Assembly (NCBI RefSeq): GCF_039969435.1
Contig: NZ_JBDVNU010000038.1
Location: 86,071-150,070, forward strand
Reading direction: 5' to 3'
DNA length: 64,000 nucleotides
From: Ilumatobacter sp.
GTDB lineage: Bacteria > Actinomycetota > Acidimicrobiia > Acidimicrobiales > Ilumatobacteraceae
Shown here: positions 6,971 to 39,854 of the stretch, piece after piece
Layout: each line of letters opens with the position of its first letter
Numbering within the stretch: the stretch's first letter is position 1
Made by a program: the position numbers and the translations under genes
The notes under the pieces: model-generated
Database searches by the model: none
Seen by the model: the letters and a program-made list of their open reading frames with translations, nothing else
Told to the model about the DNA's origin: nothing

Positions 6971-7065
6971 GGCGATCTCATCGTCCCGGAGTCGAGTGAA
7001 CGGCTGTCAACGCTAGCGGTGGTCCGGGTTCTTCGAGAACGGGGCATGCAGGCGACACTGGGCAC

Positions 7066-8235
7066 ATGGAGACCACCACCGACAACGGCCCCGGCGACGA
7101 TCCCCACGCATCCGTGGATTCGTTCCAGGCCGACGCTGCCGACTGGTTGGCGGAACACGCCGCGTCCGCGCCACCCGACTACGGAGCCATCTGTCCACCG
7201 GAACTGATCGAGACGGGCATCGAGTGGCAGAGGAGCCTGCGCGACGCCGGCTACGCAGGCATCCACTGGCCGACCGAGCACGGCGGTCGTGGTCTGAGCA
7301 TCGAGCACAACGCTGCCTGGATGCTGGAATGCGCACGCGCCGGAGTCCCTCCCGTGCTGAACATGGTCGGCCTGGTCCTCACGGCCGGAGCACTGCTGCG
7401 CTTCGGCACACCCGAGCAGCAGCAGCGCCACCTGCGACCGACGCTCGACGCCGATCACGTGTGGTGTCAGCTGTTCTCCGAGCCGGGGTCGGGAAGCGAC
7501 CTCGCGTCACTGTCCACCCGCGCCGAACTCGACGGCGACCGGTTCGTCGTGAACGGCCAGAAGGTGTGGTGCTCGGGTGGGCGGTACAGCAACTGGGGCA
7601 TCCTGATGGCGCGCACCCGACCAATCGACCCGACGGGCGAGCACGGCGCACCGCAACACGAGGGCATCTCGTTCTTCCTCTGCCCGATGGACCTCCCCGG
7701 CATCGAGATCCGCCCGCTGAAGCAGATGACCGGCGAGTCGGAGTTCGACGAGGTGTTCTTCACCGACGTGCACCTCCCCGCCGACCACCTGCTCGGACCG
7801 CTGCACGGCGGATGGGGCGTGGCGATGGCCGTGCTGACCAGCGAACGCGGTCACATCGGCACGGCGGTGATCTCACTCGAGCGGCGCCTCGAGCACATGA
7901 CCCGACTCGCGGAAGGCCACGACCTCGACGCCACGGCCCGACAGGAGCTGATGCGGCTCGTCTCGACGGGCAGCGCCTACAAGGCGATGGCGCAGCGCCA
8001 GGGCCCCGTCGCGTCCACCGCAGCGTCGCTGATGAAACTGGGCATCACACAGATGACGTTCGACGCCGCGATGTTGCGTGGCGACCTGGCGGGGGCTGCG
8101 AGCCTGCTCGACGGCACCCAGGCATCTGGCATGCTGGCCGCACCGGGAGGTCGCATCGCAGGCGGCACCAGCCAGGTGCAGCGCAACATCATCGGTGAAC
8201 GACTGCTCGGCCTGCCCCGCGAACCGCGCGTGTGA
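7066..8235 (+). CDS. Acyl-CoA dehydrogenase
   Basis: 389 aa; ACAD middle-domain motifs (QLFSEPGSGSDLASL..., VNGQKVWCSGG), C-terminal helical domain. Confidence 0.85.
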   Translation: METTTDNGPGDDPHASVDSFQADAADWLAEHAASAPPDYGAICPPELIETGIEWQRSLRDAGYAGIHWPTEHGGRGLSIEHNAAWMLECARAGVPPVLNMVGLVLTAGALLRFGTPEQQQRHLRPTLDADHVWCQLFSEPGSGSDLASLSTRAELDGDRFVVNGQKVWCSGGRYSNWGILMARTRPIDPTGEHGAPQHEGISFFLCPMDLPGIEIRPLKQMTGESEFDEVFFTDVHLPADHLLGPLHGGWGVAMAVLTSERGHIGTAVISLERRLEHMTRLAEGHDLDATARQELMRLVSTGSAYKAMAQRQGPVASTAASLMKLGITQMTFDAAMLRGDLAGAASLLDGTQASGMLAAPGGRIAGGTSQVQRNIIGERLLGLPREPRV

Positions 8236-23517: not shown

Positions 23518-24558
23518 GTGCCGTTGCCGTTGCCTTCGTCCGACTCCGGAGATGCCGACCGTCGCTCGACCCTGCCGCCGCCGCCACCGTCGCGCGGCAC
23601 ATCGCCCGGGAACATCCAGTCCGCCACCGCACCCGCAGGTCCGCCGCCGCCCGCGAGCACGCTGCCGAGCGCTCCGTCGGGGAACGACGTCTGCTACCGC
23701 CACCCCTCGCGGCCCGTCGGTCGCCACTGCACGCGATGCGGAAAGCCCGCCTGCGCCGAGTGCCTGCACCAGGTGTCGGTCGGCAGTCACTGCACCGAAT
23801 GCGTCAAGGCCGCCCGACCGGACATCAGGACCCGGGCCAAGTACTGGCAGGCAGGCAAGCCGGCGATCGTCACCACCACGCTCATCGCGCTCAACGTCGT
23901 TGTGTTCGTGATCCTCGGCCTCGTCTACGGCCTGAGCGACATGATCGGGCAGTCCGGCGGGGAGGCCCACGCCCGCTTCGGACTCTTCGGCCCGGCTCTC
24001 GGCGGCGATCCCATCGGCCTGTTCCGCACCGCCGACGGCGACCTCGTCACCTCGAACGGGAACGAGTGGTACCGCCTCGTCACCAGTGGGTTCCTGCACT
24101 ACGGGATCATCCACATCGGCTTCAACATGTACATCCTGTTCATGCTCGGCAACATGCTCGAGCCACAGCTCGGACGGGTCAAGTTCCTGTCGATCTACTT
24201 CGCATCGATGCTCGGCGGGTCGGCCGGAGCGCTGCTGATCGAACCGAACGCCCTGACGGCCGGCGCGTCGGGTGCCGTCTTCGGGCTGCTCGGCGCGGCG
24301 GCCGTCGGCATGTGGCACCAGGGCATCAATCCGTTCTCCACGGGCGTCGGTCGGTTGCTGTTGATCAACCTCGCGTTCACGTTCCTCTGGCCGAACATCT
24401 CGATCGGCGGGCACCTCGGCGGCGTGGTGGCCGGAGCGCTGTGCGCCTTCGTGATGATGGCCCCCGCCTACAAGGGATTCCCGCGCTGGGCCGCGAGCAT
24501 CACTCCTCTCGCCGTCGCCGTGGTCGCCGTCGTCGCCTCGGTCGTCGCGGTTCGCTGA
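23518..24558 (+). CDS. Rhomboid-family intramembrane serine protease with N-terminal zinc-ribbon
   Basis: CxxC...CxxC (HCTRCGKPACAECL...HCTECV) then 6 TMs with the rhomboid GxSG motif (GASGAVFGLLGA) and catalytic His (GGHLGG). Confidence 0.8.
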   Translation: MPLPLPSSDSGDADRRSTLPPPPPSRGTSPGNIQSATAPAGPPPPASTLPSAPSGNDVCYRHPSRPVGRHCTRCGKPACAECLHQVSVGSHCTECVKAARPDIRTRAKYWQAGKPAIVTTTLIALNVVVFVILGLVYGLSDMIGQSGGEAHARFGLFGPALGGDPIGLFRTADGDLVTSNGNEWYRLVTSGFLHYGIIHIGFNMYILFMLGNMLEPQLGRVKFLSIYFASMLGGSAGALLIEPNALTAGASGAVFGLLGAAAVGMWHQGINPFSTGVGRLLLINLAFTFLWPNISIGGHLGGVVAGALCAFVMMAPAYKGFPRWAASITPLAVAVVAVVASVVAVR

Positions 24559-27116: not shown

Positions 27117-30086
27117 GTGACATCGTCGTGGAGGCCGACAGGGTTCTCGTTCGCCCTGCGACTGCTCGCGCTCCTGCTCCCACCTCTCCTCGGCGTCGGA
27201 GTCCTGGCATTCCAGCGGATCGAGACCGAGCAGACCGCGTCCGCCAACGCCCGTCGAGTCGTCGACGAGGCTCGACTCCAACAGGACGTGGCTGCGGTGT
27301 ACGGACCGGCCCAGCTCGAACAGGTTGCGCTCGAGGGGTTGGCGGCGGTCGACGCCCTCGGTGTCGACCGCGAGATCGTCGTCTCGGTCACCGGTGTCGA
27401 CTTCGGGCAGGTGTACGGCGACAACGGGGCGCTCCTCGACGCCCGCCTGGACGACCTGATCGAACGACACGGCTCCGTGGCGGTCGCCGGCTCCACGCTC
27501 GCCATCCGACTCACGTTCATCCGCGGCGCGATCGCCACGCAGCGCCGGTTGTCCGGGGAGTTCCGCGCGACAGAACGCGATGTGCGCCTCGTGTTCGAGG
27601 ACCTCAACCGACTCCTGGCCGACGCCCTCGACACCAGGAACCCCACGGCGTCCCCGTCGGCCACACCGCGCATTCTCGTCGCCGACCAGATGCGACTCGC
27701 CGCACTGAGCGACGTGCTGTCGGCGGCCGGTGGTCGGGGCACGGCTCTCCTCGACGGTCTCCTCAACCGGACCGAGCTGACGATCGGCGCCATCGAACAG
27801 GCGTCGGGCCGTCTCGACTACGCGATCGAGAGATACGAATCGCTGATCGGCACCGACGCCGGGTTCGCTGCCGTCCTCGCTGGCCTCGAACCGGTCCCCG
27901 ACGAACTGCTGTTGCGTTCGCTCACCGAGTCGGACGCCGACGTGTACGACCCCGTGTACATCCAGACCTCTGCCGGGGCTCTGCTCAACCAACTGGAATT
28001 CCTGGGGTCGATCGAGGCGTACTCGGCCCGTGTCCACGAAACAGTGGTCGACGGTCTCGATGCCGACGCCGTGGCCGCGAACTCCGCGGTGTCCAACACC
28101 CGTCTGTTCGCCGGCGCCATCGCGATCGTCAGCCTCGCCACCCTGCTCCTCCTGGCCTGGTCGACGTTGCGACCGCTGCGACGCCTCACGAATCGTGCTC
28201 GCGACATCAGCGACGGGTCGTTCGACGTCGAGCCGCTCCCCGAACGCGGTCCCCGTGACGTGCGGTTCCTGACCACGACGATGAACTCGATGGCCACGAC
28301 GCTGCGGATGGTGGATCGCGAGATCGCCGATCTCGCATCGGACTCACCCGGCGAACACGACCGCAACCTCCCCGGCGCCATCGGCATCTCGATCACCCGC
28401 TCGTTCGATCGGCTCGAAGAGGTGTCCGCTCGTCTCCAGGAGAGCGAGCAACTGGCATCGGCCATCGTCGAGCACGCCGCCGACGCGATCTGGACGATCG
28501 ACGCCCACGGGCTGATCACTTCGGCCAACGGCGCCTCGGTGGGTCTGACCGGCGTGTCTGCCACTCGACAACTCGGTGAACCGCTCGAGCGATACCTCCC
28601 GAGCACTGCGGGTGAGGTCGACATCCGCAGCGAATCGGGCGAAACCCTGAGGGTCCTCGTGGCGAGCAGCGAGATCACCAGCGGTGATCAGGCGCTGACG
28701 ACCGTGATCGCACACGACATCTCCGAGCGCCTGCGGTTCGAGCAGAAGCTCGCCCACCAGGCCAACCACGACGCACTCACGGGTCTCCCGAACCGCTATG
28801 CCGTCCTCGAAGCGCTCGTCGCGACGCCCGTCGGCGACTCGGTGTCGGTCCTCTTCCTGGACCTCGACGGCTTCAAGTCCGTGAACGACACACGCGGGCA
28901 CCTCGCCGGCGACCGTGTGCTGGCCGACGTCAGCCGCCGCCTCTCGAGCAATGTGCGGCCGGGTGACTTCGTCGGACGACTCGGCGGAGACGAGTTCGTC
29001 GTGATCATGCGCCACGTCGAGGACGGCGACGACGCGATCTCGTTCGCCCACCGCCTGATCCGCGAGATCGAGCAGCCGTACCACGACGGGCAAAACCTGT
29101 TCGCCCTCTCGGCAAGCGTCGGGATCGCCGTCTTCCCCCACGGCATCGCTGCCGAGGGATGCGACGCGCTCGGTGCCATCCGACGCGCCGACTCCGCCGT
29201 CTACGCGGCCAAGGGCAAGGGGCGGGGTCGTGTCGAGGCGTTCGACGAACGACTCCAGAACCGCATCGTGGACGAAGCAGAGATCGAACTGGCTCTGCGC
29301 AGCGCCGTGCGCAACGACGAACTCGAGATGCACCTCCAGCCGGTCTTCGACGCCGTGCTCGGCCGGTTCACCAGCGCCGAGGCGCTCGTGCGTTGGATCC
29401 GACCCGGCCACGGCATGATGCCTCCCGGCCAGTTCATCCCGATCGCCGAGCGGTCGTCGCTGATCGACGAGATCGGTCGATGGGTCCTGGATCGTGCGTG
29501 TGCGATCCTCGCCCGCTGGGCACAGGACGACGTGCTGCGCGAGTTCAGGATCGCCGTCAACGTGGCCGGATCGCACCTCCTCGACGGGGACCTCGTGGCC
29601 GACCTGGACGCTGCGGTTCGCCGTTCCGGAGCCGACCCGACGCGCCTCGAGTTCGAACTCACCGAGACACAGTTGATGGCCGACCACGAGCGTGCTGCAT
29701 CGATCCTGCGCACGATCCGTCGACGCGGCATCAAGGTCGCGATCGACGACTTCGGCACCGGGTACTCGTCGATGGCATACCTCCGACAACTCCCCATCGA
29801 CACCCTCAAGATCGACCGGAGCTTCATCGCCCCGATCGGCGGCAGCGATGCCGACGGCGACACCACCGTGGTCGACGCACTTCTGACGATCGGCCACGCA
29901 CTGGGGCTGTCGGTGGTCGCTGAAGGTGTCGAGACCACTGCCCAGATGGAGTACGTGACGACACACGGGGCCGACCGTGTCCAGGGTTTCCTGCTCGCCC
30001 GTCCGGCCTCGATCTCCGCCATCGAGACGGTACTGCGTCAGGGGCGAACCGCTGATGCTGAGTCCGCCTCGGCGCATCAGCCATGA
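27117..30086 (+). CDS. Membrane sensor GGDEF-EAL protein (periplasmic sensor-HAMP-PAS-GGDEF-EAL)
   Basis: 989 aa; N-terminal TM, second TM about residue 330, PAS-like region, GGDEF (RLGGDEFVV), EAL (EALVRWIRP..., KVAIDDFGTG, KIDRSF). Confidence 0.85.
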   Translation: MTSSWRPTGFSFALRLLALLLPPLLGVGVLAFQRIETEQTASANARRVVDEARLQQDVAAVYGPAQLEQVALEGLAAVDALGVDREIVVSVTGVDFGQVYGDNGALLDARLDDLIERHGSVAVAGSTLAIRLTFIRGAIATQRRLSGEFRATERDVRLVFEDLNRLLADALDTRNPTASPSATPRILVADQMRLAALSDVLSAAGGRGTALLDGLLNRTELTIGAIEQASGRLDYAIERYESLIGTDAGFAAVLAGLEPVPDELLLRSLTESDADVYDPVYIQTSAGALLNQLEFLGSIEAYSARVHETVVDGLDADAVAANSAVSNTRLFAGAIAIVSLATLLLLAWSTLRPLRRLTNRARDISDGSFDVEPLPERGPRDVRFLTTTMNSMATTLRMVDREIADLASDSPGEHDRNLPGAIGISITRSFDRLEEVSARLQESEQLASAIVEHAADAIWTIDAHGLITSANGASVGLTGVSATRQLGEPLERYLPSTAGEVDIRSESGETLRVLVASSEITSGDQALTTVIAHDISERLRFEQKLAHQANHDALTGLPNRYAVLEALVATPVGDSVSVLFLDLDGFKSVNDTRGHLAGDRVLADVSRRLSSNVRPGDFVGRLGGDEFVVIMRHVEDGDDAISFAHRLIREIEQPYHDGQNLFALSASVGIAVFPHGIAAEGCDALGAIRRADSAVYAAKGKGRGRVEAFDERLQNRIVDEAEIELALRSAVRNDELEMHLQPVFDAVLGRFTSAEALVRWIRPGHGMMPPGQFIPIAERSSLIDEIGRWVLDRACAILARWAQDDVLREFRIAVNVAGSHLLDGDLVADLDAAVRRSGADPTRLEFELTETQLMADHERAASILRTIRRRGIKVAIDDFGTGYSSMAYLRQLPIDTLKIDRSFIAPIGGSDADGDTTVVDALLTIGHALGLSVVAEGVETTAQMEYVTTHGADRVQGFLLARPASISAIETVLRQGRTADAESASAHQP

Positions 30087-30218: not shown

Positions 30219-30842
30219 ATGAGTGATGTCCTGTCCGCCTCCATCGAACTCCCGACGCTGGTGTTCACCGCGCTGCTCGCCATCGCCGGCTGCATGTGGC
30301 TGCTCTCGCTGATGGGCGCGATCGACATCGAGATCGATGCGGCCGACGGCCTGCTCGACGACGCGCTCGAACCACTCGGCCTGTCCGAGGTCCCCGCCAC
30401 GATCATGCTCACCGTGTTCGCTCTGGCCGGCTGGTTCGTGTCGGTGCTCACGAGCGTCTACGTCCTCGACGGCTGGTTCGGCACCACCGCCGTCCTCGCC
30501 CTGCTGGCCACGGGGATCGGCGCTGCGCTGGTCGCTCTGCTCTTCGTGGCGTGGCTGGCACCTCGACTCGCCGTGGTCTTCGTCACCACCACGGCGCCGT
30601 CGAAGCGCGAGCTCCTCGGTCGGATCGCCGAGGTGCGCTCCGCCACCGTCACCGAGACGACGGGCCGAGGCGAGGCAACGTGGCCGGACGGCACCGTGTC
30701 GACCGTCGACCTGCGCACCACGGCCGGCACCGGCGTGGCCCCGGGCGAACTCAAGCGCGGCGATCTCGCCCTGATCGTGGAGTGGAACGAGGCCACCGAC
30801 GACTTCTTCGTCGGCCGCGTTCCCGCCGAGTTGCTCGACTGA
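30219..30842 (+). CDS. NfeD/YqiJ-like membrane protein (N-terminal TM helices plus C-terminal OB-fold)
   Basis: 3-4 TM helices, then a soluble C-terminal about 80-aa beta-rich domain (GEATWPDGTVSTVDLRT...LALIVEWNEATDDFFVG); sits immediately upstream of a flotillin gene as in yqiJ-yqiK and yuaF-floT operons. Confidence 0.65.
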   Translation: MSDVLSASIELPTLVFTALLAIAGCMWLLSLMGAIDIEIDAADGLLDDALEPLGLSEVPATIMLTVFALAGWFVSVLTSVYVLDGWFGTTAVLALLATGIGAALVALLFVAWLAPRLAVVFVTTTAPSKRELLGRIAEVRSATVTETTGRGEATWPDGTVSTVDLRTTAGTGVAPGELKRGDLALIVEWNEATDDFFVGRVPAELLD

Positions 30843-30848
30843 GGCAGG

Positions 30849-30870
30849 GTGCGGGGAGACATCCCCGCAC
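30849..30870 (+). promoter_or_regulatory. Perfect 9-bp stem / 4-nt loop hairpin between the NfeD-like and flotillin genes (intra-operon attenuator or processing site)
   Basis: gtgcgggga gaca tccccgcac, starting 7 bp after the NfeD-like stop; 120 bp before the flotillin start. Confidence 0.4.
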
Positions 30871-30992
30871 ATCCATCGGTTCGTTTCGACCATGATGTGT
30901 CCGTACATCGTGGTCACCACCAGATGATCGACGCTCACTCCCATCCGGGATCGGCGCTCGACATCGCTTCGAGAAAGAGTCAGTGATTCAAC

Positions 30993-33008
30993 ATGGGAAG
31001 TGCCCTCGCAGCGGCCGGCGTCGTCGTCGTCATCGTGGTCGTCGTCGTCCTCCTCGTCGCCGTGATGGTGTCGAGGCTGTTCCTCAAGGTCCCGCAGGGT
31101 CAGGCGCTGGTCGTGTCGAAGTGGCGGTCGGTCGTGGTCACCTTCACCGGCCAGATCGTCATCCCGGTGATCCACAAGGCCGAGATCATGGACATCTCGG
31201 TCAAGAACATCCAGATCGAGCGGCGCGGCAAGGGCAACGGTCTGATCTGCAAGGACAACATCCGTGCCGACATCTCGGTCGAGTTCTTCGTGAAGGTCGA
31301 TCCCACCGAGGAGGCCGTCAAGAAGGTGGCTCAGGCGATCGGCTGCGAGCGGGCGTCGGACATCCAGACGCTGAACACGCTGTTCGCCGCGAAGTTCTCC
31401 GAGGCACTCAAGACGGTGGGCAAGAAGTTCGAGTTCGAATCGCTCTACACCGACCGTGATTCGTTCCGTGACGAGATCGTCGAGATCATCGGCAAGGACC
31501 TCAACGGATACGTCCTCGAAGACGTCGCCATCGACTACCTCGAGCAGACGCCGCTGGCCGATTTCGACCCCGACAACATCCTCGACGCCGACGGCATTCG
31601 CAAGATCACCGAGCGCACCGCCATCCAGCACATCGAGACCAACAAGGCCGAACAGCACGAGCGCGAGGAGACCACTCGTCGCACCGTCGACGCCGACAAG
31701 GCGGTGTTCGAGATGGAGCGCGATCGTGCCGAGGCCGAGGCACGTCAGCAGCAGGAGATCCGCACCGTCATCGCGCATGCCGACGCCGAGGCGAAACTCG
31801 TGGAGGAGGCGGAACGCAAGCGTTCCGAGGAGGCCCGACTCGGTGCCGAGCAGGGCATCGGTGTCGCGAACGAGAACAAGGAACGCGAGGTCGCCATCGC
31901 GGGCTTGAACCGTGAACGCGTGGTCAAGGTCGAAGCCGAGAACATCGAGCGGGATCGACTGCTCGCGGTCACCGGCCGGGAGACCGCCGTGGCCGAAGCG
32001 AACAAGGAGAAGGAGGAGCGGGCGCGCGAACTCGCCGACGTCGCCCGTGGCCGCGTCGAGGCCGACCTGGGTGTGGCCGAGAAGGAAGAGGCCATCGCGA
32101 CCCTGCGCGTCGTGGAGGACGCCCAGCGCCGGGCGGACGCCGCGATCCGCACCGCCGAAGGTGACGCCCAGGCGTTGTTCGTCGGGACCGTGAAGGAAGC
32201 CGAGGCCTCCCGTCAGGCTGCGACATCCGAAGCCGAGCGGGCCACCATCCTCGCCCGCGCGAACGCCGACGCCGCCCAGCAGGATTCGCTCGCCGCACAA
32301 CGACGTGCCGAAGGCGCCAAGGCCGAGGCCGCAGCCGGCGGTCTCGCCGAGGTGCAGGTCGAGCGCGAGCGCGCCGACGCCGTCCGGGCGCTCGGTCTGG
32401 CCGAGGTCGAGGTCAAGCAGGCCGACGCCGAAGCCGTCCGATCACTCGGCGCCGCCGAAGGCGATGCCACCAAGTCCAGGCTGTCGGGTGAAGGCCAAGG
32501 TCTATCGGCCAAGGCCGAGGGCGTCGGAGCGATGACGGCGGCCGGCCAGGAGCACGAGGAGTTCCGCCTGCGCCTCGAGACCGACAAGGAAGTGGCGCTG
32601 GCCGGCGTCAACGCCAAGGCCGACGTGGCGCGGTCCGCTGCGGCAGCGCTGGGCGAGGCCATGGCGAACGCCGACATGAAGATCGTGTCCGACGAGTCGA
32701 TCGTCGAGCGGATCCTGTCCGCGGCCGGTGCCGGTCAGGCGATCGACGGTTTCGTCGGGAGCAGCGACAGCGCACGGCGCCTGCTCCAGCCCTACTTGGA
32801 AGGCGACTCGAACCTGGTGCAGGACGTCGCCGCCGGAGTCGGCGGCGTGGGTGCCGCAGGCATCCGTGACCTGACGATCGCCGAGTTCGTCGCCCGTCTG
32901 GGTGGTCGCATGGGCGGCGACTCCGCGCTGATCGACCAACTCAAGGCCGCGGTGGAGTCGAGCGGCCTCGCGACCGAGAACGTCGGCAACGTCATCGATG
33001 TCGACTGA
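30993..33008 (+). CDS. Flotillin-family SPFH (band-7) protein, YqiK/FloT-like
   Basis: N-terminal TM; SPFH domain (QALVVSKWRSVVVTFTGQIVIPVIHKAEIMDISVKNIQIERRGKGNGLICKDNIRADISVEFFVKV); long Ala/Glu-rich coiled-coil flotillin region; 671 aa. Confidence 0.85.
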   Translation: MGSALAAAGVVVVIVVVVVLLVAVMVSRLFLKVPQGQALVVSKWRSVVVTFTGQIVIPVIHKAEIMDISVKNIQIERRGKGNGLICKDNIRADISVEFFVKVDPTEEAVKKVAQAIGCERASDIQTLNTLFAAKFSEALKTVGKKFEFESLYTDRDSFRDEIVEIIGKDLNGYVLEDVAIDYLEQTPLADFDPDNILDADGIRKITERTAIQHIETNKAEQHEREETTRRTVDADKAVFEMERDRAEAEARQQQEIRTVIAHADAEAKLVEEAERKRSEEARLGAEQGIGVANENKEREVAIAGLNRERVVKVEAENIERDRLLAVTGRETAVAEANKEKEERARELADVARGRVEADLGVAEKEEAIATLRVVEDAQRRADAAIRTAEGDAQALFVGTVKEAEASRQAATSEAERATILARANADAAQQDSLAAQRRAEGAKAEAAAGGLAEVQVERERADAVRALGLAEVEVKQADAEAVRSLGAAEGDATKSRLSGEGQGLSAKAEGVGAMTAAGQEHEEFRLRLETDKEVALAGVNAKADVARSAAAALGEAMANADMKIVSDESIVERILSAAGAGQAIDGFVGSSDSARRLLQPYLEGDSNLVQDVAAGVGGVGAAGIRDLTIAEFVARLGGRMGGDSALIDQLKAAVESSGLATENVGNVIDVD

Positions 33009-33013
33009 CCCCG

Positions 33014-33106
33014 GGTGTGGGAGGGGTCTGACCCACTCCACACCCGAGGCGCACGACCCCGCTCCGCACCTCGATGGTGTGGAGTGGGTCAGACCCCTCC
33101 CACACC
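33014..33106. repeat. Intergenic element: 31-bp perfect inverted repeat (arms 33014-33044 and 33076-33106) with 31-nt spacer; each arm is itself internally palindromic
   Basis: Arm A ggtgtgggaggggtctgacccactccacacc; arm B is its exact reverse complement. Within each arm ggtgtgg...ccacacc and gggtc.gaccc can pair. Sits between the flotillin stop (33008) and the ATG (33107) of the large gene. Confidence 0.85.
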
Positions 33107-36100
33107 ATGACTGACACCTCCACCACCGAGACACCGCAGGGTGATGCCGCTCCCGAGCAGACGCTGCGGGGCGGGTCCTACGACCTGCTGCGTCGACGAC
33201 TCGCCGGCCAGGCGAGCGAGCTCGAACAGATCGCCCTCGGGATCGACGCGGCCCGCATCGAGGCCTTCGGCTCGGTCGATCTCGCGCTGACCGGTGCGGA
33301 TCGTCTCGCCACCGATCTGGCCTGCCTGCCGCGCGACATCGCTCGGATCGGCGACCTGTTGCTGCTCGGCTTCAACATCGACGTCGAATTGAGCATCCAA
33401 CGACCCGAGCAGGTGTTCGCGTTGTACGCGGCGAGCGAGGTCTCCACCGATCAGCCGACCCTGACCCCCGTCGCCGACGACGATCCGCGCAACTTCCTGG
33501 CCGATCCCGAGTTCCGCAGCGAGTTCGACAAGCTCGTGCGGTTCTTCGGCAAGAGTCGGTTCACCGACCTGCGCACCACCCAGAACCAGCTCTTGGCAGT
33601 GTTCCAGGTCGGCGACCGCGTGGACGACGTCCGCGCGTTCCGATGGACGCTCAGCGGCGACGGTGCGTCACGAACGGCCACGTTCGTCGATGCCCGTGGA
33701 GACCGTGACTACACGTGGCCGCCTGCGCACGACCAGGAATGGACCGCAGCGACTCGAGAGGATCAGCGTGCGGGTGCGTACCCGGTCGTGTCGATCAAGG
33801 ACGAGGTGTTCGTCGGATTCCGCCGCGGCCGACTCCAACTGCGCGTCGAGACGGGGCAGGGCGGCTCGCACGCCGAGATCGACGAACCCGTCACGAACGT
33901 CGGCCAGTCGCTCGCCGACATCTCCGTCGACCACCTGACGATCGGCGACATCCTGCTGATCCGCGTCCGCCTGTACGAGGAGGCGCCGCGGACGTACGTC
34001 TTCTCCCGACGCAGTCGGTCGGGTCAACGCGTCGATGCCGCAGGTGTCGCGTCACGGCTCCTGCCGGGCGGCGAGGGCGTCGTGTTCCCGGGCGGCTTCC
34101 ATCTCACGTCGACCGGCACCCGCGTGTTCGACGTCGACGTCGACGGCCTCCAGTTCGAGGAGACGATCGCCTCACCCAACGGTGAGGACGTCCTGTACGT
34201 GTTCCACCGGCGTGAGACGGGCACCTATCTGCTGATGCCCTACAACCTGGTGAAACGCCAGGTCGCACAGGTCATCACCGCACACGGTTTCGCCACGTTC
34301 GCCGATGGGTCGATGGTCCTGTTCCGCGACCAGGGCGTCGACGCCGATTCGGCGAAGATCCACCCGATCCAGTGGTGGAGAACGCCGTTCGCCGACGCCG
34401 ACCACGTCCCCGATGCGGGTGACGACAACCCGTGGATGCAACGTGTGGGGAACGCCTCGCTCGTGGCAGGCCTCGGCGACGTCTACGACGTGGTGCGACT
34501 CAGCCGTGACGAGCAACCGACCGCCCGGTCGTGGGAAGGACTCGCCTCGGCGACCCGCCGATCGATGGATCAGCACCTCTGGTTCGTCGACCCCGAGGCC
34601 GCAGGTCTCCACGCCGCAGCGCACGAGGTGCTCACCACGGCGGGCCAGTTGCTCGACGAACACAAACTGGTCGAGCGCAAACGCTCCGCTGCGCGCGGCT
34701 CGCTCGCCGCCGCCGAGACATCGGTCCGCCAGGTGCTCAACGGCATCTCGACCGCCTCGACCCCCGACCAGGTGGTGGGCGCACTCGGGCAGTTGCGCCG
34801 GGCACGAGGTGAGATGTCCGTCGTCGCCGACATCGACTCGATCGACACCGGTCGCGTCGAGGAACTCATCGGTGAGCTGGACGCAGGTGTGGCCGAACTG
34901 TCCACGCGCGCCGTCGACGTGTTGTCACGACCCGGTGCATTCGCCTCGCTCGAGTCCGAGATCGCCTCGGCGGAAGCGGGCGTGACGGACGCGACGACAT
35001 CGGCGCACCTGGACGAGATCGGTCGACGGCTCCAGTCGATCGGCAACGACCTCGACGCGGTGATCGACACGGTGTCGGCGCTCGAAGGAGGCGACCCGAC
35101 GGTGCGCACCACGATCGTGCGCAGCGTCTCGGAGGTCGCAGGATCCGCCAACCGGGTCACTGCGCAGCTCGACTCGAAACGACGCAACCTCGGAGCCAAG
35201 GAGGCCGAGGCCGCGTTCGACGCCGAACTCGCACTCGTCGAGCAGACCTTGAACGGCTCGGTCGCCGGTGCCGGCACACCCGACGAGTGCGACTCCGTGC
35301 TCGCCCGACTGCTCGTCACGATCGAACGGTTGGAGTCCCGCTACGGCGACGACCCCGACGCCAGCGCGTCCATCGCCGAGGTGCGCGCCACAGCGCACGA
35401 GGTCGTCGGCGAGCGGCGCACCGCGCTCCTCGACGAACGCAACCGGCGCGCCACCCGCATCGTGGACGCCGCCACCCGACTCCTCGCGACCGTCACCCGT
35501 CGTGCGAGCGAGTTCGCCGACGACAAGGAGATCGCATCGTTCTTCGCGACCGACCAGCTCACCTCCCGGGTGCGTGAACTCGCCGACGAGTTGGAGTCGC
35601 TCGACGACGCCGGTCGCGCTGCCGAGGTGCGCAGTGGCCTCCGCGACGCCGCCGAGGAAGCACGCCGTCGCATCCGCGACAAGGCCGCCCTGGTGTCCGA
35701 CGACGGCGCGGTGGTGCTCGGTGGCGTGCGGCTCGCACAGAACAACCAACCCTTCGAGATGGTTCTGTCCTCGCGCACGGACCCGCAGGGCAACGACACC
35801 GTCGCGGCGACCATCACCGGCACCGACTTCTCGGCCGACGTCAGCGCCGAACTCTCCGGGTTCGAGGATCTGCTCGGTCGCACCTTCCCGTCCGAGACGT
35901 CCGGCGCCCGCGGCGTCTCACGCAGCGAGTACCTGGCGTGGGCGGTCCTCGAGACGATGACCGACCGGCCGGGCGGACTCACCGAACTCCTGGCGGCCAC
36001 CGCGAACCCGGCGAAGATGAACGAGCTGTGTCAGGCCGAGGCCGAACGCCGGCACGGCGACGGCTATCAGCGTGGCGTCCACGACCAGGATGCAGCACGC

Positions 36101-38077
36101 ATCCTCTCCGCCGTGATGCCTGCACTCGAAGCCGAGCCGCTCCTGCGCTACACCGGCACCGTCCGCGGCCTCGCCCGGCTCTGGCTGTCGCAACTCTCCT
36201 CCCCTGCCCTCGATGGCTGGGTCGCGAAGGCGAAGGCCGCCGAGACCGCCGCCCAGCGACTCGGTGCCACTGGACCGGCACGCCGCCTGGCCGAGGAGGC
36301 AGCGCACGAGATCGAACAGTTCGTCGCAGCGTCGTCGGCGCCCGAGACGCACCGAGCCGTGTTCGGGCCGATCGAGATCGAGCGCGCAGCCGACTACCTG
36401 ATCGACGAACTCGCGGTCGGCCCGGAGGTCATCGCGTCTTCGGCGGCCACATCGCTCGTCGGGGAGATGCAGAAAGATCTCGGCAAGGACGGCGTGGCCG
36501 AGCTGCACGTGGCACTCGCTTCGGAGGCCGATGCGGTGGAGCGGTTCGTTCTTGCCCAGGACTGGGTCGCGGCTTTCGTGGCCGCCGATCCGTCACGAGC
36601 CGATCGGGAGTTCGACGTGGCCGAGGCTGCGTCGATGTTGGCCACGCCGGACCTCGCCGTGCGGACGGCGAACCAGGGCGGGGCGATCACGGTGACCGGG
36701 CTCGTGGCCGACCATCCGCGTCTCGTCGACGGGCAGCTCGTCACCCGGACCGACGAACTCGCCGAAGGAGCGGGCGCCCTGTTCGCCGAGATGCAGTCGC
36801 GGTGGCCGGCCTACTCCGAGGCGCGGCGCCGGGTGGTGGATCGCCAGAGCGCAGTCGTCAAGCTCGACGAACACCGACCCCAGGTCATGTCGGGCTTCGT
36901 GCGCAACACGCTGATCGACACCGCACTGCTCCCGCTGTTCGGCCCGAACCTCGGTCGACAGCTCGGCACGGTCGATCCGACCGACGTGGCACGTCAGGGC
37001 CTCCTCGTCGTCGTGTCGCCCCCCGGGTACGGCAAGACGACGCTGATGGAGTGGATCGCCGACCGGTTGGGCCTGCTGATCGTGAAGGTGAACGGCCCGG
37101 CGCTCGGCCACGACACGACCAGCCTCGACCCCGCCGATGCCCCGAATGCGGCCGCCCGCGCCGAGATCGAGAAGGTCAACCTGGCGTTCCGGATGGGTCG
37201 CAACGTGATGCTGTACGTCGACGACATCCAGCACACCTCCCCCGTCCTGCTGTCCCGGTTCATCCCGCTGGCCGATGCGACCCGGCGGATCGAGGGGGTC
37301 GTCGACGGCGAGCCGACCACGTTCGACCTGCGCGGCAAGCGGTTCTGCGTGGTCATGGCAGGCAACCCGTACACCACTGGCGGCGGGCGCTTCGAGATGC
37401 CCGACATGCTCGTCAACCGTTCCGACGTGTTCAACCTCGGCGACGTGTCGGGCGAACACGGCGAGGCATTCGCCCGCTCCTACATCGAGAACTCACTCAC
37501 CGCGTGTCCGACCATCGCGCCGCACGCGTCGAAGCTGCTCGACGACCTCGCTCCGGTGCTGCAGATGGCGGCGGGCCGCGCACCGGTCGAGACGAGTGGC
37601 CTGGAGCACGCCTGGGACGGCGCCGAACTCGATGGGACGGTTCGTGCCGTGTCCATGCTGCGTCGTGCCCAGGAGGTGCTGCTGAAGGTCAACGCGTCCT
37701 ACATCGCATCGGCGGCCACGGCCGACGAGGACCGGGTCGCGCCGCCGTTCCTCCTCCAGGGCTCGTACCGCAACATGGCCCGCATCGCGAGTCGGGTGGT
37801 GCCCGTGATGACCGAGGCCGAACTCGACATGGTCGTCGACGACCACTACACCTCCGAGGCCCAGACCCTCACCGACAAGGCAGAACAGAACCTGCTCGCC
37901 TACAAGTCGCTCACCGGCCGCTCGACCGCCGCCGAGGCCGCTCGCTGGCAGGAGATCCTCGATCGCGCCGGCGCCCGAGCCGCAGCCGCCGACGGCGTGG
38001 GACGCGTGGTCGGCGCACTCGACCGCCTCACCGGCGCCGTGCTGCACGACCCCGACCACCCCGCCCCCGGCGTCTGA
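33107..38077 (+). CDS. 1656-aa multidomain protein with a single C-terminal AAA+ ATPase module (MoxR/dynein-like clade); N-terminal about 1250 aa of unassigned function
   Basis: ATG at 33107 (MTDTSTTE...; the in-frame ATG at 33074 lies inside repeat arm B). Walker A VVSPPGYGKTTL, Walker B MLYVDDIQH, sensor-1-like CVVMAGNPYTTGGGRFEMPDMLVNRSDVF; long helical/coiled stretches in the middle; no TM segment seen; continuous GC3 bias over about 5 kb. Confidence 0.7.
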   Translation: MTDTSTTETPQGDAAPEQTLRGGSYDLLRRRLAGQASELEQIALGIDAARIEAFGSVDLALTGADRLATDLACLPRDIARIGDLLLLGFNIDVELSIQRPEQVFALYAASEVSTDQPTLTPVADDDPRNFLADPEFRSEFDKLVRFFGKSRFTDLRTTQNQLLAVFQVGDRVDDVRAFRWTLSGDGASRTATFVDARGDRDYTWPPAHDQEWTAATREDQRAGAYPVVSIKDEVFVGFRRGRLQLRVETGQGGSHAEIDEPVTNVGQSLADISVDHLTIGDILLIRVRLYEEAPRTYVFSRRSRSGQRVDAAGVASRLLPGGEGVVFPGGFHLTSTGTRVFDVDVDGLQFEETIASPNGEDVLYVFHRRETGTYLLMPYNLVKRQVAQVITAHGFATFADGSMVLFRDQGVDADSAKIHPIQWWRTPFADADHVPDAGDDNPWMQRVGNASLVAGLGDVYDVVRLSRDEQPTARSWEGLASATRRSMDQHLWFVDPEAAGLHAAAHEVLTTAGQLLDEHKLVERKRSAARGSLAAAETSVRQVLNGISTASTPDQVVGALGQLRRARGEMSVVADIDSIDTGRVEELIGELDAGVAELSTRAVDVLSRPGAFASLESEIASAEAGVTDATTSAHLDEIGRRLQSIGNDLDAVIDTVSALEGGDPTVRTTIVRSVSEVAGSANRVTAQLDSKRRNLGAKEAEAAFDAELALVEQTLNGSVAGAGTPDECDSVLARLLVTIERLESRYGDDPDASASIAEVRATAHEVVGERRTALLDERNRRATRIVDAATRLLATVTRRASEFADDKEIASFFATDQLTSRVRELADELESLDDAGRAAEVRSGLRDAAEEARRRIRDKAALVSDDGAVVLGGVRLAQNNQPFEMVLSSRTDPQGNDTVAATITGTDFSADVSAELSGFEDLLGRTFPSETSGARGVSRSEYLAWAVLETMTDRPGGLTELLAATANPAKMNELCQAEAERRHGDGYQRGVHDQDAARILSAVMPALEAEPLLRYTGTVRGLARLWLSQLSSPALDGWVAKAKAAETAAQRLGATGPARRLAEEAAHEIEQFVAASSAPETHRAVFGPIEIERAADYLIDELAVGPEVIASSAATSLVGEMQKDLGKDGVAELHVALASEADAVERFVLAQDWVAAFVAADPSRADREFDVAEAASMLATPDLAVRTANQGGAITVTGLVADHPRLVDGQLVTRTDELAEGAGALFAEMQSRWPAYSEARRRVVDRQSAVVKLDEHRPQVMSGFVRNTLIDTALLPLFGPNLGRQLGTVDPTDVARQGLLVVVSPPGYGKTTLMEWIADRLGLLIVKVNGPALGHDTTSLDPADAPNAAARAEIEKVNLAFRMGRNVMLYVDDIQHTSPVLLSRFIPLADATRRIEGVVDGEPTTFDLRGKRFCVVMAGNPYTTGGGRFEMPDMLVNRSDVFNLGDVSGEHGEAFARSYIENSLTACPTIAPHASKLLDDLAPVLQMAAGRAPVETSGLEHAWDGAELDGTVRAVSMLRRAQEVLLKVNASYIASAATADEDRVAPPFLLQGSYRNMARIASRVVPVMTEAELDMVVDDHYTSEAQTLTDKAEQNLLAYKSLTGRSTAAEAARWQEILDRAGARAAAADGVGRVVGALDRLTGAVLHDPDHPAPGV

Positions 38078-38118: not shown

Positions 38119-38255
38119 CTCGCTCGGCGGGTTCAGCTGCACGAATTCCACCCCTGGGTCGCCGACATCTTCGCCTGACGTGTCCCTCGTCGCCTCGGTC
38201 GTTCGTCGTGTAGTTGAATCGGGAGACACCCGATCACGACAGACAGGATCCGATC

Positions 38256-38609
38256 ATGAAGTACGCATTCCTCCTCTACGACGACCCGACCAACGGTGCC
38301 GAGATGGGCACCCCCGAGATGGATCTCGAGATGCAGCAGTGGTTCACGTTCACCGATGAACTCACGGCGTCCGGCAAGAACCTGGGTGGCGAGGCGTTGA
38401 ATCCGGTGGAGACCGCCACGACCGTCAGGGTCCGAGACGGCAGGACCGTCACCGTCGACGGCCCCTTCGCCGAGACGAAGGAGACGCTCGGCGGGTTCTA
38501 CATCGTTGAGGCCGCCGACCTCGACGAAGCGATCGAGTGGGCGGCGAAGGTTCCGAACGCTCCGACCGGTTCGGTCGAGATCCGACCGATCATGGAATTC
38601 GACGGCTGA
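38256..38609 (+). CDS. YciI-like (DGPF-domain) protein
   Basis: 117 aa; MKYAFLLYDD... and the GGFYIVEAADLDEAIEWAAKVP motif of YCII-related proteins; typically paired with ECF sigma factors. Confidence 0.75.
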   Translation: MKYAFLLYDDPTNGAEMGTPEMDLEMQQWFTFTDELTASGKNLGGEALNPVETATTVRVRDGRTVTVDGPFAETKETLGGFYIVEAADLDEAIEWAAKVPNAPTGSVEIRPIMEFDG

Positions 38610-38618
38610 CGAGTCACC

Positions 38619-39854
38619 ATGCGCGCCCGGATCTCCCCGGTCGACCACGCCTTTCGGACCGAATGGGCGCCTCTGGTCGCGACGCTGCTGAGGGAGACCC
38701 GGAGTCTGCAACTCGCCGAGGACGTGGTGTCCGAGGCGTTCGTGGAGGCGTCGGTCCGCTGGCGGACCGACGGCCCTCCACGGAGTCCCGGTGCGTGGTT
38801 GCTCACGACGGCACGTCGCAAGGCGATCGACCGGATCCGGCGGCAGCGGCGTTTCGACGAGCGACTTCCCGGTCTGGCCGCCGAACTCGACGACCCGCCG
38901 AGCCACGGCGACGAGCGGCTGGGCGATGACCAACTCGCGCTGATCGCAGGGTGCGCCCACCCGGCACTCGACGCCGAAGCGCAGGTCGCGCTCACGTTGC
39001 GGTACGTGTGCGGGCTCACGACCGAGCAGATCGCCCACTCGTTCATGGTTCCGAGCGAGACCATGAAGAAGCGACTGACACGTGCCAAGGCGAAGATCTC
39101 CGCGGCCGGTGTCCCGTTCGACATCCCGGACCGGCACCGTCTCCCCGAGCGCCTCACCGCGGTGTGTGGTGTGATCTACGCCGTGTTCAACGAGGGCTAT
39201 GCGAGTTCGGTCGGGTCCGATCTCGTACGCGGTTCGTTGTGCGACGAGGCGGTGTGGTTGTCGGAACTGCTCTGCGGACTGGCACCCGACGACGGTGAGG
39301 TACACGGCCTCGCAGGTCTGATCCTGTTGACCGATTCACGCCGATCGGCACGCACCGACGCGGACGGACTGCCGGTGCTCCTCGAGGATCAGGATCGTTC
39401 GACGTGGGACTCCGCCAAGGTGGCGCGAGGTCTCGCGCACCTCGCTCGGAGTGCGTCGCTCGAAGGCGTCGGGCCGTACCGACTGATGGGGTCGATCGCC
39501 GGCCTGCACGCCCGGTCTCCGTCGGTCGAGGAGACCCCGTGGGCTCGCATCGCCGGTCTGTACGGTGCGCTGATCGCCCTGCACGACTCACCGGTCCTGC
39601 GGCTGAACCAGGCAGCCGCACTCGCCTGGAGCGAGGGCAGCGCCACCGGTCTGGCGCTGATGGACCAACTCGTCGGGGAACTCGACGACTACTCGTACCT
39701 CCACTCGTCGCGAGCCGCGCTGCTGGTCAAGCTGGGTCGGGTCGACGAGGCACACGCCGCCTACGACCGGGCGATCTCCCTCACGAGCAACGAGGCCGAG
39801 CGTCGCTGGATGATGCTCCGTCGAAGCGAACACCCGACTCCTCGGACCTCGTAG
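38619..39854 (+). CDS. ECF-type RNA polymerase sigma factor with long C-terminal (TPR-like) extension
   Basis: Sigma-2 region (ARRKAIDRIRRQRR), sigma-4 HTH (LTLRYVCGLTTEQIAHSFMVPSETMKKRLTRAKAKI), plus about 230-aa C-terminal helical extension as in the YciI-associated ECF group. Confidence 0.8.
   Translation: MRARISPVDHAFRTEWAPLVATLLRETRSLQLAEDVVSEAFVEASVRWRTDGPPRSPGAWLLTTARRKAIDRIRRQRRFDERLPGLAAELDDPPSHGDERLGDDQLALIAGCAHPALDAEAQVALTLRYVCGLTTEQIAHSFMVPSETMKKRLTRAKAKISAAGVPFDIPDRHRLPERLTAVCGVIYAVFNEGYASSVGSDLVRGSLCDEAVWLSELLCGLAPDDGEVHGLAGLILLTDSRRSARTDADGLPVLLEDQDRSTWDSAKVARGLAHLARSASLEGVGPYRLMGSIAGLHARSPSVEETPWARIAGLYGALIALHDSPVLRLNQAAALAWSEGSATGLALMDQLVGELDDYSYLHSSRAALLVKLGRVDEAHAAYDRAISLTSNEAERRWMMLRRSEHPTPRTS

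Follow-up and report, generated by a model that had tools for sequence, protein, structure and literature searches.

Gene organization of the locus

Translation of the open reading frames (ORFs) in the window, i.e., the whole 64,000-nucleotide stretch of Ilumatobacter DNA analyzed here, places three genes in a row on the + strand, as a reading of the sequence alone had described. They code for a YqiJ-like membrane protein, a flotillin and a giant ATPase.

30219-30842, + strand: gene 1, 207 aa, three predicted transmembrane (TM) helices followed by a C-terminal soluble beta-rich domain; probable equivalent of Pseudomonas aeruginosa BacC
30993-33008, + strand: gene 2, a 671-aa flotillin; probable equivalent of BacD/PaFlo3
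33107-38077, + strand: gene 3, a 1656-aa soluble ATPase; orthologue of BacE, labeled 'DNA repair ATPase' in databases

The longest ORF of gene 3 extends from 33074 to 38077 (1667 codons). The Met at position 12 of this ORF (33107) is invariant among 12 homologues, and we therefore take gene 3 to encode 1656 aa and the gap between the flotillin and ATPase genes to be 98 bp, in agreement with the earlier reading.

The module is flanked on the 5' side by genes for GlpD, an M90 peptidase and a HAMP-PAS-GGDEF-EAL protein, and a rhomboid gene is located four genes upstream, both in the window and in its relatives. On the 3' side, a YCII gene (38214-38609) and then an ECF sigma factor gene with DUF6596 stand in the place of a bacF-type PLD gene, which is absent downstream of gene 3. 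Synteny around the module is conserved between the window and its relatives, and the neighbors have housekeeping or signaling functions. Neither PspA nor YjfI was found in the window by tblastn. Consensus scans detected no terminator-like site on the + strand and no sigma-70 promoter in the window, although for this high-GC actinobacterium the scans were uninformative.

Genes 1 and 2 encode YqiJ- and YqiK-related proteins

The assignment of gene 2 to the flotillins (SPFH proteins) was corroborated by a Pfam Band_7 match at aa 32-220 (E 6.5e-9; 36.5 bits against a cut-off of 23.6) and by BLAST comparison with Escherichia coli YqiK (27% identity, E 6e-35). In the protein, a hydrophobic N-terminal membrane anchor and the SPFH/Band_7 domain precede a long coiled coil rich in Ala and Glu, and the C-terminal region is specific to the subfamily. 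Its identity to the flotillins encoded at 73 related loci is 39-83%. The flotillins of this module are about 120 aa longer than YqiK and carry extra C-terminal motifs, HEEFRLRLE ... IVSDE/IVGGD, which are conserved among them and not aligned in YqiK.

Direct searches with gene 1 in Pfam, NCBIfam and PADLOC gave no meaningful match. When a profile of the gene 1 family was compared with E. coli YqiJ, hhalign aligned the two over 132 columns with a probability of 86.5% (E 4.6e-6). The alignment runs through the C-terminal part, where an NfeD-type OB-fold is a candidate, and there is no match to Pfam NfeD or YqiJ_OB. Pfam YqiJ_N scored above its cut-off in two of 10 gene 1 relatives, and some relatives are named 'DUF1449 family protein' at NCBI. 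Judged by these profile comparisons, the gene 1 product is a distant relative of YqiJ/YuaF (DUF1449, short NfeD-like), and the match to E. coli YqiJ supports the original call of a YqiJ-like membrane protein.

Domain architecture of the giant ATPase

Pfam searches, AlphaFold2 (AF2) models and Foldseek, the kind of check that had been proposed for gene 3, resolved a propeller, long helices and a C-terminal AAA+ module.

33284-34381, + strand (aa 60-425): seven-blade beta-propeller, core of Pfam DUF3686 (Pfam E 5e-128; AF2 pLDDT about 90)
34430-35692, + strand (aa 442-862): long-helix, coiled-coil-like region with helices of up to 58 residues (AF2 secondary structure)
34937-35188, + strand: Pfam DUF7902, inside the long-helix region (E 1.5e-19)
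35711-36964, + strand (aa 869-1286): middle region, comprising a small beta domain followed by helical domains, another small beta element and, leading into the AAA+ module, a helical linker (AF2)
37004-37489, + strand (aa 1300-1461): AAA+ alpha/beta core with Walker A, Walker B, pre-sensor-1 beta-hairpin, sensor-1 Asn (AGNP) and a conserved Arg in NRSD
37016-37042, + strand: Walker A, SPPGYGKTT
37208-37225, + strand: Walker B, hhhhDD rather than DE
37517-38044, + strand (aa 1471-1646): AAA+ lid and C-terminal helical domain (AF2 model; invariant columns)

The propeller is preceded by a 30-aa helix, and the middle region was modeled with pLDDT values mostly of 85-97. The N-terminal stretch of about 1250 aa had been thought to hold no recognizable domain, which proved incorrect, as DUF3686 and DUF7902 cover part of it. 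Almost all occurrences of DUF3686 are N-terminal and in proteins of this kind (556 clusters at 50% identity). Full-length homologues of about 1650 aa occur in many phyla at 34-41% identity, an unusually high conservation.

All of the motifs quoted from the sequence (SPPGYGKTTL, YVDDIQH and AGNP...RFEMPDMLVNRSDVF) are present, and, together with the AF2 models, they bear out a single C-terminal AAA+ module of the MoxR/dynein type. Walker A, the sensor-1 Asn, the Arg residues, the pre-sensor-1 hairpin and a closest fold of the MoxR type all place it in the MoxR/AAA_5 (dynein-related) clade, and an invariant LQGSYRNM in the C-terminal helical domain provides a candidate sensor-2 Arg. The Walker B sequence DDIQH showed no variation in sets of 12 and 40 homologues, in which DE with its catalytic Glu was not encountered. 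Since DD is present in every homologue, hydrolysis may be slow, and the ATPase might work as a nucleotide-dependent switch instead of a motor. MoxR-type ATPases usually have a VWA partner, and none with VWA/MIDAS is present among the three conserved genes. Gene 3 thus differs from CbbQ, NorQ, RavA and the midasin/dynein modules both in this partner and in its Walker B, and, whereas typical MoxR proteins are about 300 aa long, its AAA+ module forms the C-terminus of a 1650-aa protein.

Foldseek searches with the N-terminal model returned generic propellers alone (E 1e-4 to 1e-3); dynein and axonemal matches to this model were dismissed on account of TM scores below 0.1. No specific PDB match was obtained for the long-helix region, nor any for the middle and C-terminal models except in the AAA+ part, and a PDB sequence search gave matches at the level of the P-loop only. 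Gene 3 showed no peptidase family match, no TM or hydrophobic segment, and no nuclease or other effector domain.

The flotillin-ATPase arrangement is conserved across phyla

The gene neighborhood check that had been suggested was carried out by collecting loci from the ATPase. All 73 loci with upstream DNA, the only ones that the count takes in, have a co-directional flotillin gene directly 5' of the ATPase gene; they come from at least eight phyla. These loci belong to Actinomycetota, Myxococcota, Gamma- and Betaproteobacteria, Planctomycetota, Acidobacteriota and one Clostridia MAG, and the arrangement was also seen in Deinococcota and Bacteroidota. Of 71 loci, at least 67 carry a YqiJ-like gene upstream of the flotillin gene. 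An adjacency found in 73 of 73 loci is far beyond chance, and the possibility that the large gene was a chance neighbor is rejected. All-against-all comparison of the ORFs of the loci revealed no fourth universally conserved gene.

A CesT/Tir-PspA pair directly upstream of the module was observed at 7-8 proteobacterial loci, on pQBR103, in P. aeruginosa and in Hymenobacter; among loci collected in this manner, PspA is an occasional partner of the ATPase and flotillin the invariable one. A rhomboid gene directly follows the module at four loci (L055, L070, L076 and L077) and also lies within the pQBR103 cluster. The distribution of the module is patchy and resembles that of horizontally transferred genes. 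Among 72,556 plasmids, only 13 carried a copy, and most of these were megaplasmids or chromids; a viral origin was rejected, with no copy among 2.9 million viral contigs.

A link to c-di-GMP was considered because of the GGDEF-EAL gene 5' of the module in the window, a GGDEF gene 5' of it in Deinococcus and a 'PilZ' match, only faint, in one homologue. It was not adopted, since GGDEF-type genes are numerous in any genome; they lie near the module in only 3-4 lineages.

Stem-loops at the gene junctions

Hairpins had been reported at every junction of the module. Two of them stood up to folding analysis.

33014-33106, + strand (arms 33014-33044 and 33076-33106): perfect 31-bp inverted repeat with a 31-nt loop, dG -83 kcal/mol, z -12.4
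30849-30870, + strand: 9-bp GC-rich hairpin just past the gene 1 stop codon, with no T-run after it

The other two did not, the regions around 30126 and 38099 folding no better than shuffled sequences (z -1.3 and +1.6, respectively). The inverted repeat occupies the flotillin-ATPase gap, ends one base 5' of the ATPase start codon and is present as a single copy within the window. Other lineages have unrelated structures of equal strength at this junction. Among flotillin-ATPase gaps of at least 57 nt (n=41), the median z was -2.9 and 29 had z < -2, and the median z of the gene 1-flotillin gaps at 20 other loci was 0.06. That strong stem-loops recur at the flotillin-ATPase junction across phyla is a new detail of this operon type. 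The closest relative of the window locus (L088) has a gap of 8 nt and no such repeat, and the two genes overlap by 4 bp (stop/start) in at least 11 loci. With about 25 loci, including L088, leaving no room for a hairpin, an element of this kind that tunes expression would be optional. In the gene 1-flotillin gap of the window, none of 200 shuffles was as stable as the fold of 30843-30992 (z -3.4), and the 30849 hairpin did not recur in the 20 other loci.

Relationship to known operons

The three genes very probably make up the conserved core of an AAA+ system coupled to flotillin, as counterparts of bacC-bacD-bacE of P. aeruginosa. Gene 3 is 36% identical over its full length to BacE (P0251) in its bac operon context, where the order is DUF2170, PspA, 213 aa, 688 aa, DUF3686 ATPase and PLD; PLDc_2 was confirmed at this locus (L087). 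The bacABCDEF operon (PA3732-PA3727 / PA14_16140-16200) and the window encode the same three products one after another: a YqiJ-like protein (about 210 aa), then a flotillin (about 690 aa), then the DUF3686/DUF7902/AAA+ protein. The window lacks bacA (DUF2170/YjfI, CesT/Tir-like), bacB (PspA) and bacF (PLD-like). In PA14, bacA-F form a single transcript by RT-PCR; a sigma-54-dependent promoter has been proposed for P. aeruginosa, and mutation of bacA raises BacB-F 6- to 13-fold (PMC10948618). The operon affects biofilm and virulence in P. aeruginosa, the published phenotypes being those of bacA and bacB, not bacE. Deletion of the orthologous flotillin, PaFlo3, reduces biofilm by about 20% and is otherwise without phenotype in standard assays (PMC13086221), and PA3728-PA3732 are induced upon phage infection (PMC12041424).

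Operons of PspA-associated band-7/flotillin, YqiJ/YuaF and a novel AAA+ protein with coiled-coil and beta-propeller have been described by Ravi et al. (2024, mSystems), who noted the ATPase 'in some cases' and suggested that abbreviated operons work with PspA encoded elsewhere (PMC11237479). [quoted passage not shown] The module, put forward earlier as a candidate uncharacterized one, is therefore not new, and for the window itself the result is modest: it is a further actinobacterial (Ilumatobacter) member of an operon type already described. The work of Ravi et al. is computational and PspA-centered, whereas our comparison starts from the ATPase and thereby brings out the constant presence of flotillin. 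A literature search for DUF3686/PF12458, or for flotillin with 'DNA repair ATPase', found nothing; the relevant literature is that on PspA/YjfI.

Genes 1 and 2 are also homologous to, and in equal order with, yqiJ-yqiK of E. coli and yuaF-floT of Bacillus subtilis, operons that have no ATPase gene (the E. coli locus was inspected). The coupling of an SPFH scaffold to an AAA+ ATPase has precedents in HflK/C-FtsH, where SPFH cages enclose AAA+ proteases, and in prohibitin-m-AAA protease. FtsH, a member of the classic AAA clade, is anchored in the membrane and has an M41 protease domain, whereas the gene 3 ATPase is soluble and MoxR-type, with a propeller and long helices in place of a protease domain.

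Possible function of the module

Flotillins have been studied from bacteria to humans. The invariable company of the ATPase and a flotillin gene suggests that flotillin function includes a step that depends on energy. A flotillin-coupled AAA+ system acting in envelope stress is the best overall explanation of the data, with a little better than an even chance of being right, and ATP-driven remodeling of the flotillin cage is a possible mechanism for it, to which we give distinctly less than even weight. By homology to YqiJ-YqiK and to solved SPFH cages, the YqiJ-like 3-TM protein and the flotillin would form a membrane-attached cage on the cytoplasmic face. The fold of the soluble 1656-aa ATPase suggests that it may form a ring, held together by its one AAA+ module of the MoxR/dynein type. 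Its N-terminal propellers, on long helical arms, might then bind the flotillin assembly or the proteins held by it, a contact suggested solely by the obligate gene linkage. ATP turnover would open or disassemble the assembly, or free its clients, under envelope stress, in Proteobacteria and Bacteroidota perhaps jointly with the adjacent, ESCRT-III-like PspA. The stem-loop found in many lineages, including the window, may keep the ATPase below the level of flotillin, which would fit a few motors serving a cage built from dozens of subunits. The slight PaFlo3 phenotype, the DD in Walker B, the missing VWA partner and the loci with no room for a hairpin weigh against this scheme. A more specific and more tentative proposal is that gene 3 encodes a dedicated motor that opens, disassembles or recycles SPFH domes with ATP, like Vps4 on ESCRT-III, with the propellers reading the subfamily-specific C-terminus of the flotillin and the stem-loop setting the flotillin:motor ratio. 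If real, such a motor would have no known precedent, in any organism, as an energy-dependent regulator of a flotillin scaffold.

PspA is itself a member of the ESCRT-III superfamily, and the ATPase might mainly target PspA/ESCRT-III-like polymers in the manner of Vps4, with flotillin marking the site and three-gene genomes encoding PspA elsewhere. The CesT/Tir-PspA genes joined to the module in Proteobacteria and Bacteroidota, and the suggestion of Ravi et al. for abbreviated operons (PMC11237479), favor this reading, which we consider unlikely all the same. Rather unlikely, too, is a hub for membrane-protein quality control, in which a flotillin cage would corral clients and the ATPase would unfold or extract them for proteases such as rhomboid, comparable to HflK/C-FtsH and mitochondrial SLP2-PARL-YME1L. 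SPFH cages around AAA+ proteases are established, and rhomboid genes recur near the module, as in the window; however, most loci have none, some proximity is expected by chance because rhomboid genes are common, and the ATPase has neither a protease domain nor a TM segment.

That the module is an abortive infection (anti-phage) system sensing phage-induced membrane perturbation is improbable, although the patchy distribution, the phage induction of the P. aeruginosa operon (PMC12041424) and the frequency of large AAA+/P-loop proteins in defense systems would suit it. The best match of gene 3 in PADLOC-DB 2.0 was IetA (E 0.002; 29 residues around Walker A), and genes 1 and 2 had none. The near or complete absence from plasmids and viral contigs, the conserved housekeeping and signaling neighbors, the lack of an effector domain and the high conservation of the 1650-aa protein between phyla also argue against it, and phage induction is equally expected of a Psp-type membrane stress response. 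The sequence-only reading, which had left a defense role open, is supported in part: it holds for the conserved three-gene flotillin/ATPase unit, but no known defense family matches and the N-terminus is not free of domains. That gene 3 is a DNA repair ATPase with an incidental flotillin neighbor is scarcely credible. The Pfam description of DUF3686, the NCBI name and RuvB among the Foldseek matches speak for it, but the NCBIfam RuvB score was 14 bits against cut-offs of 282-299, the fold is AAA+ and not ABC, and the PDB sequence matches cover the P-loop region only. The database name 'DNA repair ATPase' is without support and misleading.

Across more than 560 species, P. aeruginosa, Proteus mirabilis and many Streptomyces among them, the gene 3 type of ATPase is never found without a flotillin gene, and an energy-dependent step in flotillin function is directly testable in tractable organisms.

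Composition of the module and architecture of the ATPase

The module occupies the following positions of the window.

30219–30842, + strand: gene 1, YqiJ-like membrane protein (207 aa ORF)
30993–33008, + strand: gene 2, flotillin (671 aa ORF)
33074–38077, + strand: gene 3, large AAA+ ATPase (longest ORF, 1667 codons)

The Met residue at position 12 of the gene 3 ORF is invariant among the 12 diverse homologues compared, and therefore the real start is at 33107, which gives a protein of 1656 aa and a gap of 98 bp. The 11 codons added by the ATG at 33074 are not conserved among the homologues. With the start at 33107, the three plus-strand ORFs, the protein length and the gap described in the sequence-only reading were all borne out. 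The ATG at 33074, the first in the ORF, falls within the 3' arm of an inverted repeat, and automated annotation may choose it wrongly over 33107.

The product of gene 2 is a flotillin: it scores above the Pfam Band_7 cut-off, is 27% identical to Escherichia coli YqiK (E 6e-35), and has a hydrophobic anchor at the N-terminus and a long Ala/Glu-rich coiled coil. Compared with YqiK, the module flotillins are about 120 residues longer and share the C-terminal motifs HEEFRLRLE and IVGGD..FF, which cannot be aligned in YqiK and are candidate contact sites for the ATPase. For gene 1, we obtained no meaningful direct family match in Pfam, NCBIfam or PADLOC. Some of its close relatives are named "DUF1449 family protein" by NCBI, two of 10 relatives pass the Pfam YqiJ_N cut-off, and a 15-sequence profile gave a 132-column alignment with E. 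coli YqiJ (hhalign probability 86.5%, E 4.6e-6). Because of these several indirect lines, gene 1 can be tied to YqiJ, and its earlier label "NfeD/YqiJ-like" appears right in the sense of a distant relative. One metagenomic lineage (L082–L084) has an extra short Band_7 gene (207 aa; 6759–7382, or 6341–6964 in L084) between the YqiJ-like and flotillin genes; the ATPase of this lineage is 1890 aa long, with an N-terminal extension that gives merely a "faint" PilZ match.

The sequence-only reading had recognized no domain N-terminal of the AAA+ module, but this region matches Pfam DUF3686 (E 5e-128) and DUF7902 (E 1.5e-19). Gene 3 was modelled as two overlapping AlphaFold2 models from 40-sequence alignments, both confident (pLDDT 85.2 and 90.9), and structure comparisons were made from these predicted models.

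Domains of the gene 3 product predicted by AlphaFold2
before the propeller: N-terminal helix of 30 residues
aa 60–425: seven-blade beta-propeller
aa 442–862: very long helices, about 420 residues
aa 869–1286: small beta domain and helical domains
aa 1300–1461: single AAA+ module, followed by a lid and a C-terminal helical domain

Among 1.84 billion representatives, the propeller domain forms 556 clusters at 50% identity and is almost confined to the N-terminus of proteins with the gene 3 architecture. The Walker A, Walker B and sensor motifs noticed earlier were all found, and the nucleotide-binding motifs are intact. Walker B (37208–37225) reads hhhhDD (DDIQH), not hhhhDE, and is invariant in all 40 aligned homologues, which hints at slow hydrolysis or switch-like behaviour.

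Conservation of the gene order

The window has a GC content of 0.65–0.70, and the nearest relatives of its proteins come from Ilumatobacter (Acidimicrobiia) MAGs and isolates, the large protein being 80–88% identical. When one genome per GTDB species was scanned, relatives of the ATPase turned up in at least 567 species, and the 80 best matches to the window protein among those listed were kept as loci. Seven of them are cut by a contig end right at the ATPase gene, leaving 73 informative loci. A flotillin homologue lies directly upstream on the same strand in every one of these; the flotillins show 39–83% identity with E values of 1e-44 or better (1e-106 or better wherever the locus is not cut inside the flotillin gene). 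The YqiJ-like gene is present in at least 67 of the 71 loci that extend far enough upstream, and an all-against-all comparison of flanking ORFs detected no fourth gene conserved across the set. The median gap between the flotillin and ATPase genes is 79 bp, and in 11 or more loci their stop and start codons overlap by 4 bp. The loci span Actinomycetota, Myxococcota, Gamma- and Betaproteobacteria, Planctomycetota, Acidobacteriota and one Clostridia MAG, and the gene order is identical in plasmid or chromid copies of Deinococcus and Hymenobacter. The adjacency proposed from the window is thus more than chance, and the idea that the large gene lacks synteny with flotillin genes elsewhere is therefore rejected.

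Relationship to the bac operon

Our literature search on DUF3686 or the database name "DNA repair ATPase" found no paper. The link to the PspA-operon literature was made through the Pseudomonas fluorescens SBW25 megaplasmid pQBR103 (NC_009444.1, 84437–97641), because its module comes after YjfI and PspA genes. There, the module ends a 12-gene same-strand block with the order YjfI, PspA, rhomboid, DUF2491, DUF350, DUF1190, glutathionylspermidine-synthase-like, YqiJ-like, flotillin, ATPase. Ravi et al. 2024 (PMC11237479) described operons uniting a CesT/Tir-PspA dyad with three further genes, some versions in Proteobacteria adding a PLD gene; according to them, abbreviated operons that lack the dyad have a wider distribution. 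Both of their PspA operon classes come together in the pQBR103 cluster.

In Pseudomonas aeruginosa, the bac operon consists of bacA (DUF2170/YjfI), bacB (PspA), bacC and bacD, to which bacE and bacF (PA14_16190 and PA14_16200) were added after RT-PCR gave one transcript and a bacA mutant showed 6- to 13-fold higher levels of all five proteins (PMC10948618). The P. aeruginosa "DNA repair ATPase" (BacE, 1746 aa) shares 36% full-length identity with the window protein, and its gene context is DUF2170 - PspA_IM30 - 213 aa - 688 aa - ATPase - PLDc_2. Identity and gene order confirm the match at the sequence level. The window module adds a new actinobacterial member to a previously described operon type, which in P. 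aeruginosa already has a name; we regard this identification as very probable. Deletion of the flotillin PaFlo3 (BacD) reduces biofilm by merely about 20% (PMC13086221), and phage infection induces PA3728–PA3732 (PMC12041424); the RsmA regulon of P. aeruginosa includes PA14_16190. The role of BacE is not addressed in the published work on these operons cited here.

With the ATPase as the starting point, flotillin is a constant partner (73/73) and PspA an occasional one. PspA adjoins the module in two phyla: in 7–8 proteobacterial loci of the set, pQBR103 and P. aeruginosa, and in Hymenobacter. Among directly adjacent genes, no PspA was found in the actinobacterial, myxobacterial, planctomycete, acidobacterial or Deinococcus loci. 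The window contains no PLD gene and, by tblastn, no relative of PspA or YjfI, and therefore represents the three-gene core only.

Possible mechanism

By analogy with solved SPFH cages, the flotillin and the YqiJ-like protein would form a membrane-attached cage; the ATPase would assemble into a ring whose propellers bind this cage, and ATP turnover would remodel it during envelope stress. We propose this mechanism as a whole only tentatively. The earlier guess of an energy-dependent machine recruited to flotillin microdomains is judged to point in the right direction. A Vps4-like action of the ATPase on PspA is unlikely. The recurrence of rhomboid genes near the module would suit a hub for client extraction or quality control, a role that we consider rather improbable.

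Anti-phage defence, also suggested earlier, is very doubtful, since the module proteins gave no meaningful PADLOC matches, no copies turned up among 2.9 million viral contigs, and the window and its relatives show no defence-island context. As for the database name, a true role in DNA repair is scarcely credible: RuvB models reach 14 bits where the cut-offs lie near 290, and the searches revealed no DNA-related domain.

Structure between the flotillin and ATPase genes

Hairpins had been reported at every junction of the module. This holds for the flotillin–ATPase gap, where the 31-bp arms of a perfect inverted repeat and the 31-nt loop between them fill the space (33014–33106, + strand; dG -83 kcal/mol, z -12.4 relative to shuffled sequence), and for the gap between gene 1 and the flotillin gene, which has a 9-bp hairpin (region z -3.4), but the predicted folds at the outer junctions are no more stable than those of shuffled versions. 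No terminator-like site was found on the + strand. The 3' arm of the repeat comes to its end one base ahead of the ATPase start codon. The sole Shine-Dalgarno-like run (GGGAGGGG) is part of the 5' arm and thus some 80 nt away on the upstream side.

In 41 other loci whose flotillin–ATPase gap is 57 nt or longer, z has a median of -2.9 (below -2 in 29 and below -3 in 19), while 20 gaps between gene 1 and the flotillin gene have a median of 0.06. The flotillin–ATPase gaps of a Clostridia MAG, Polyangiales, Planctomycetota and Streptomyces contain long, nearly perfect inverted repeats that are unrelated in sequence, and in another Ilumatobacter genome the matching place holds a different palindrome.

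Long near-perfect inverted repeats in the gap
window 33014–33106
L089:8878–9000
L019:7840–7979
L067:7765–7982
L068:7863–8003

Strong structure between the scaffold and motor genes therefore recurs independently, which fits an ATPase that is expressed at a lower level than the flotillin. The element is optional: a hairpin would not fit in about 25 loci, among them the closest relative L088 with its 8-nt gap.

Neighbouring genes

Genes near the module in the window
23518–24558, + strand: rhomboid protease, four genes upstream of the module
27117–30086, + strand: HAMP-PAS-GGDEF-EAL protein, directly upstream, 132 bp from gene 1
38214–38609, + strand: YCII-domain protein, downstream
38619–39854, + strand: ECF sigma factor with DUF6596, after the YCII gene

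Rhomboid genes recur near the module: one has the same position in the Ilumatobacter relatives, one lies directly downstream of the ATPase gene in four gammaproteobacterial loci (L055, L070, L076 and L077), and one is found inside the Psp-like cluster of pQBR103 (L085:2484–3038). This arrangement recalls the mitochondrial SPFH-rhomboid-AAA hub (SLP2-PARL-YME1L), although the proximity may be chance. The HAMP-PAS-GGDEF-EAL gene is kept in the Ilumatobacter relatives L088 and L089, and in a Deinococcus plasmid copy a GGDEF gene likewise immediately precedes the module. The positions noted for such genes outside the window are L086:1229–2710 and L002:44–1402. A link to c-di-GMP is possible, but such neighbours are confined to 3–4 lineages. 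The YCII and ECF sigma pair is also found no more than a few kb from the module in Nocardiopsis (L014, L018), Herbidospora (L057) and the Ilumatobacter relatives. In 13 Streptomyces loci (L029:3323–4405, - strand, and 12 others), a divergent PucR-type regulator (GGDEF_2-like and HTH_30) lies immediately upstream and is a candidate local regulator.
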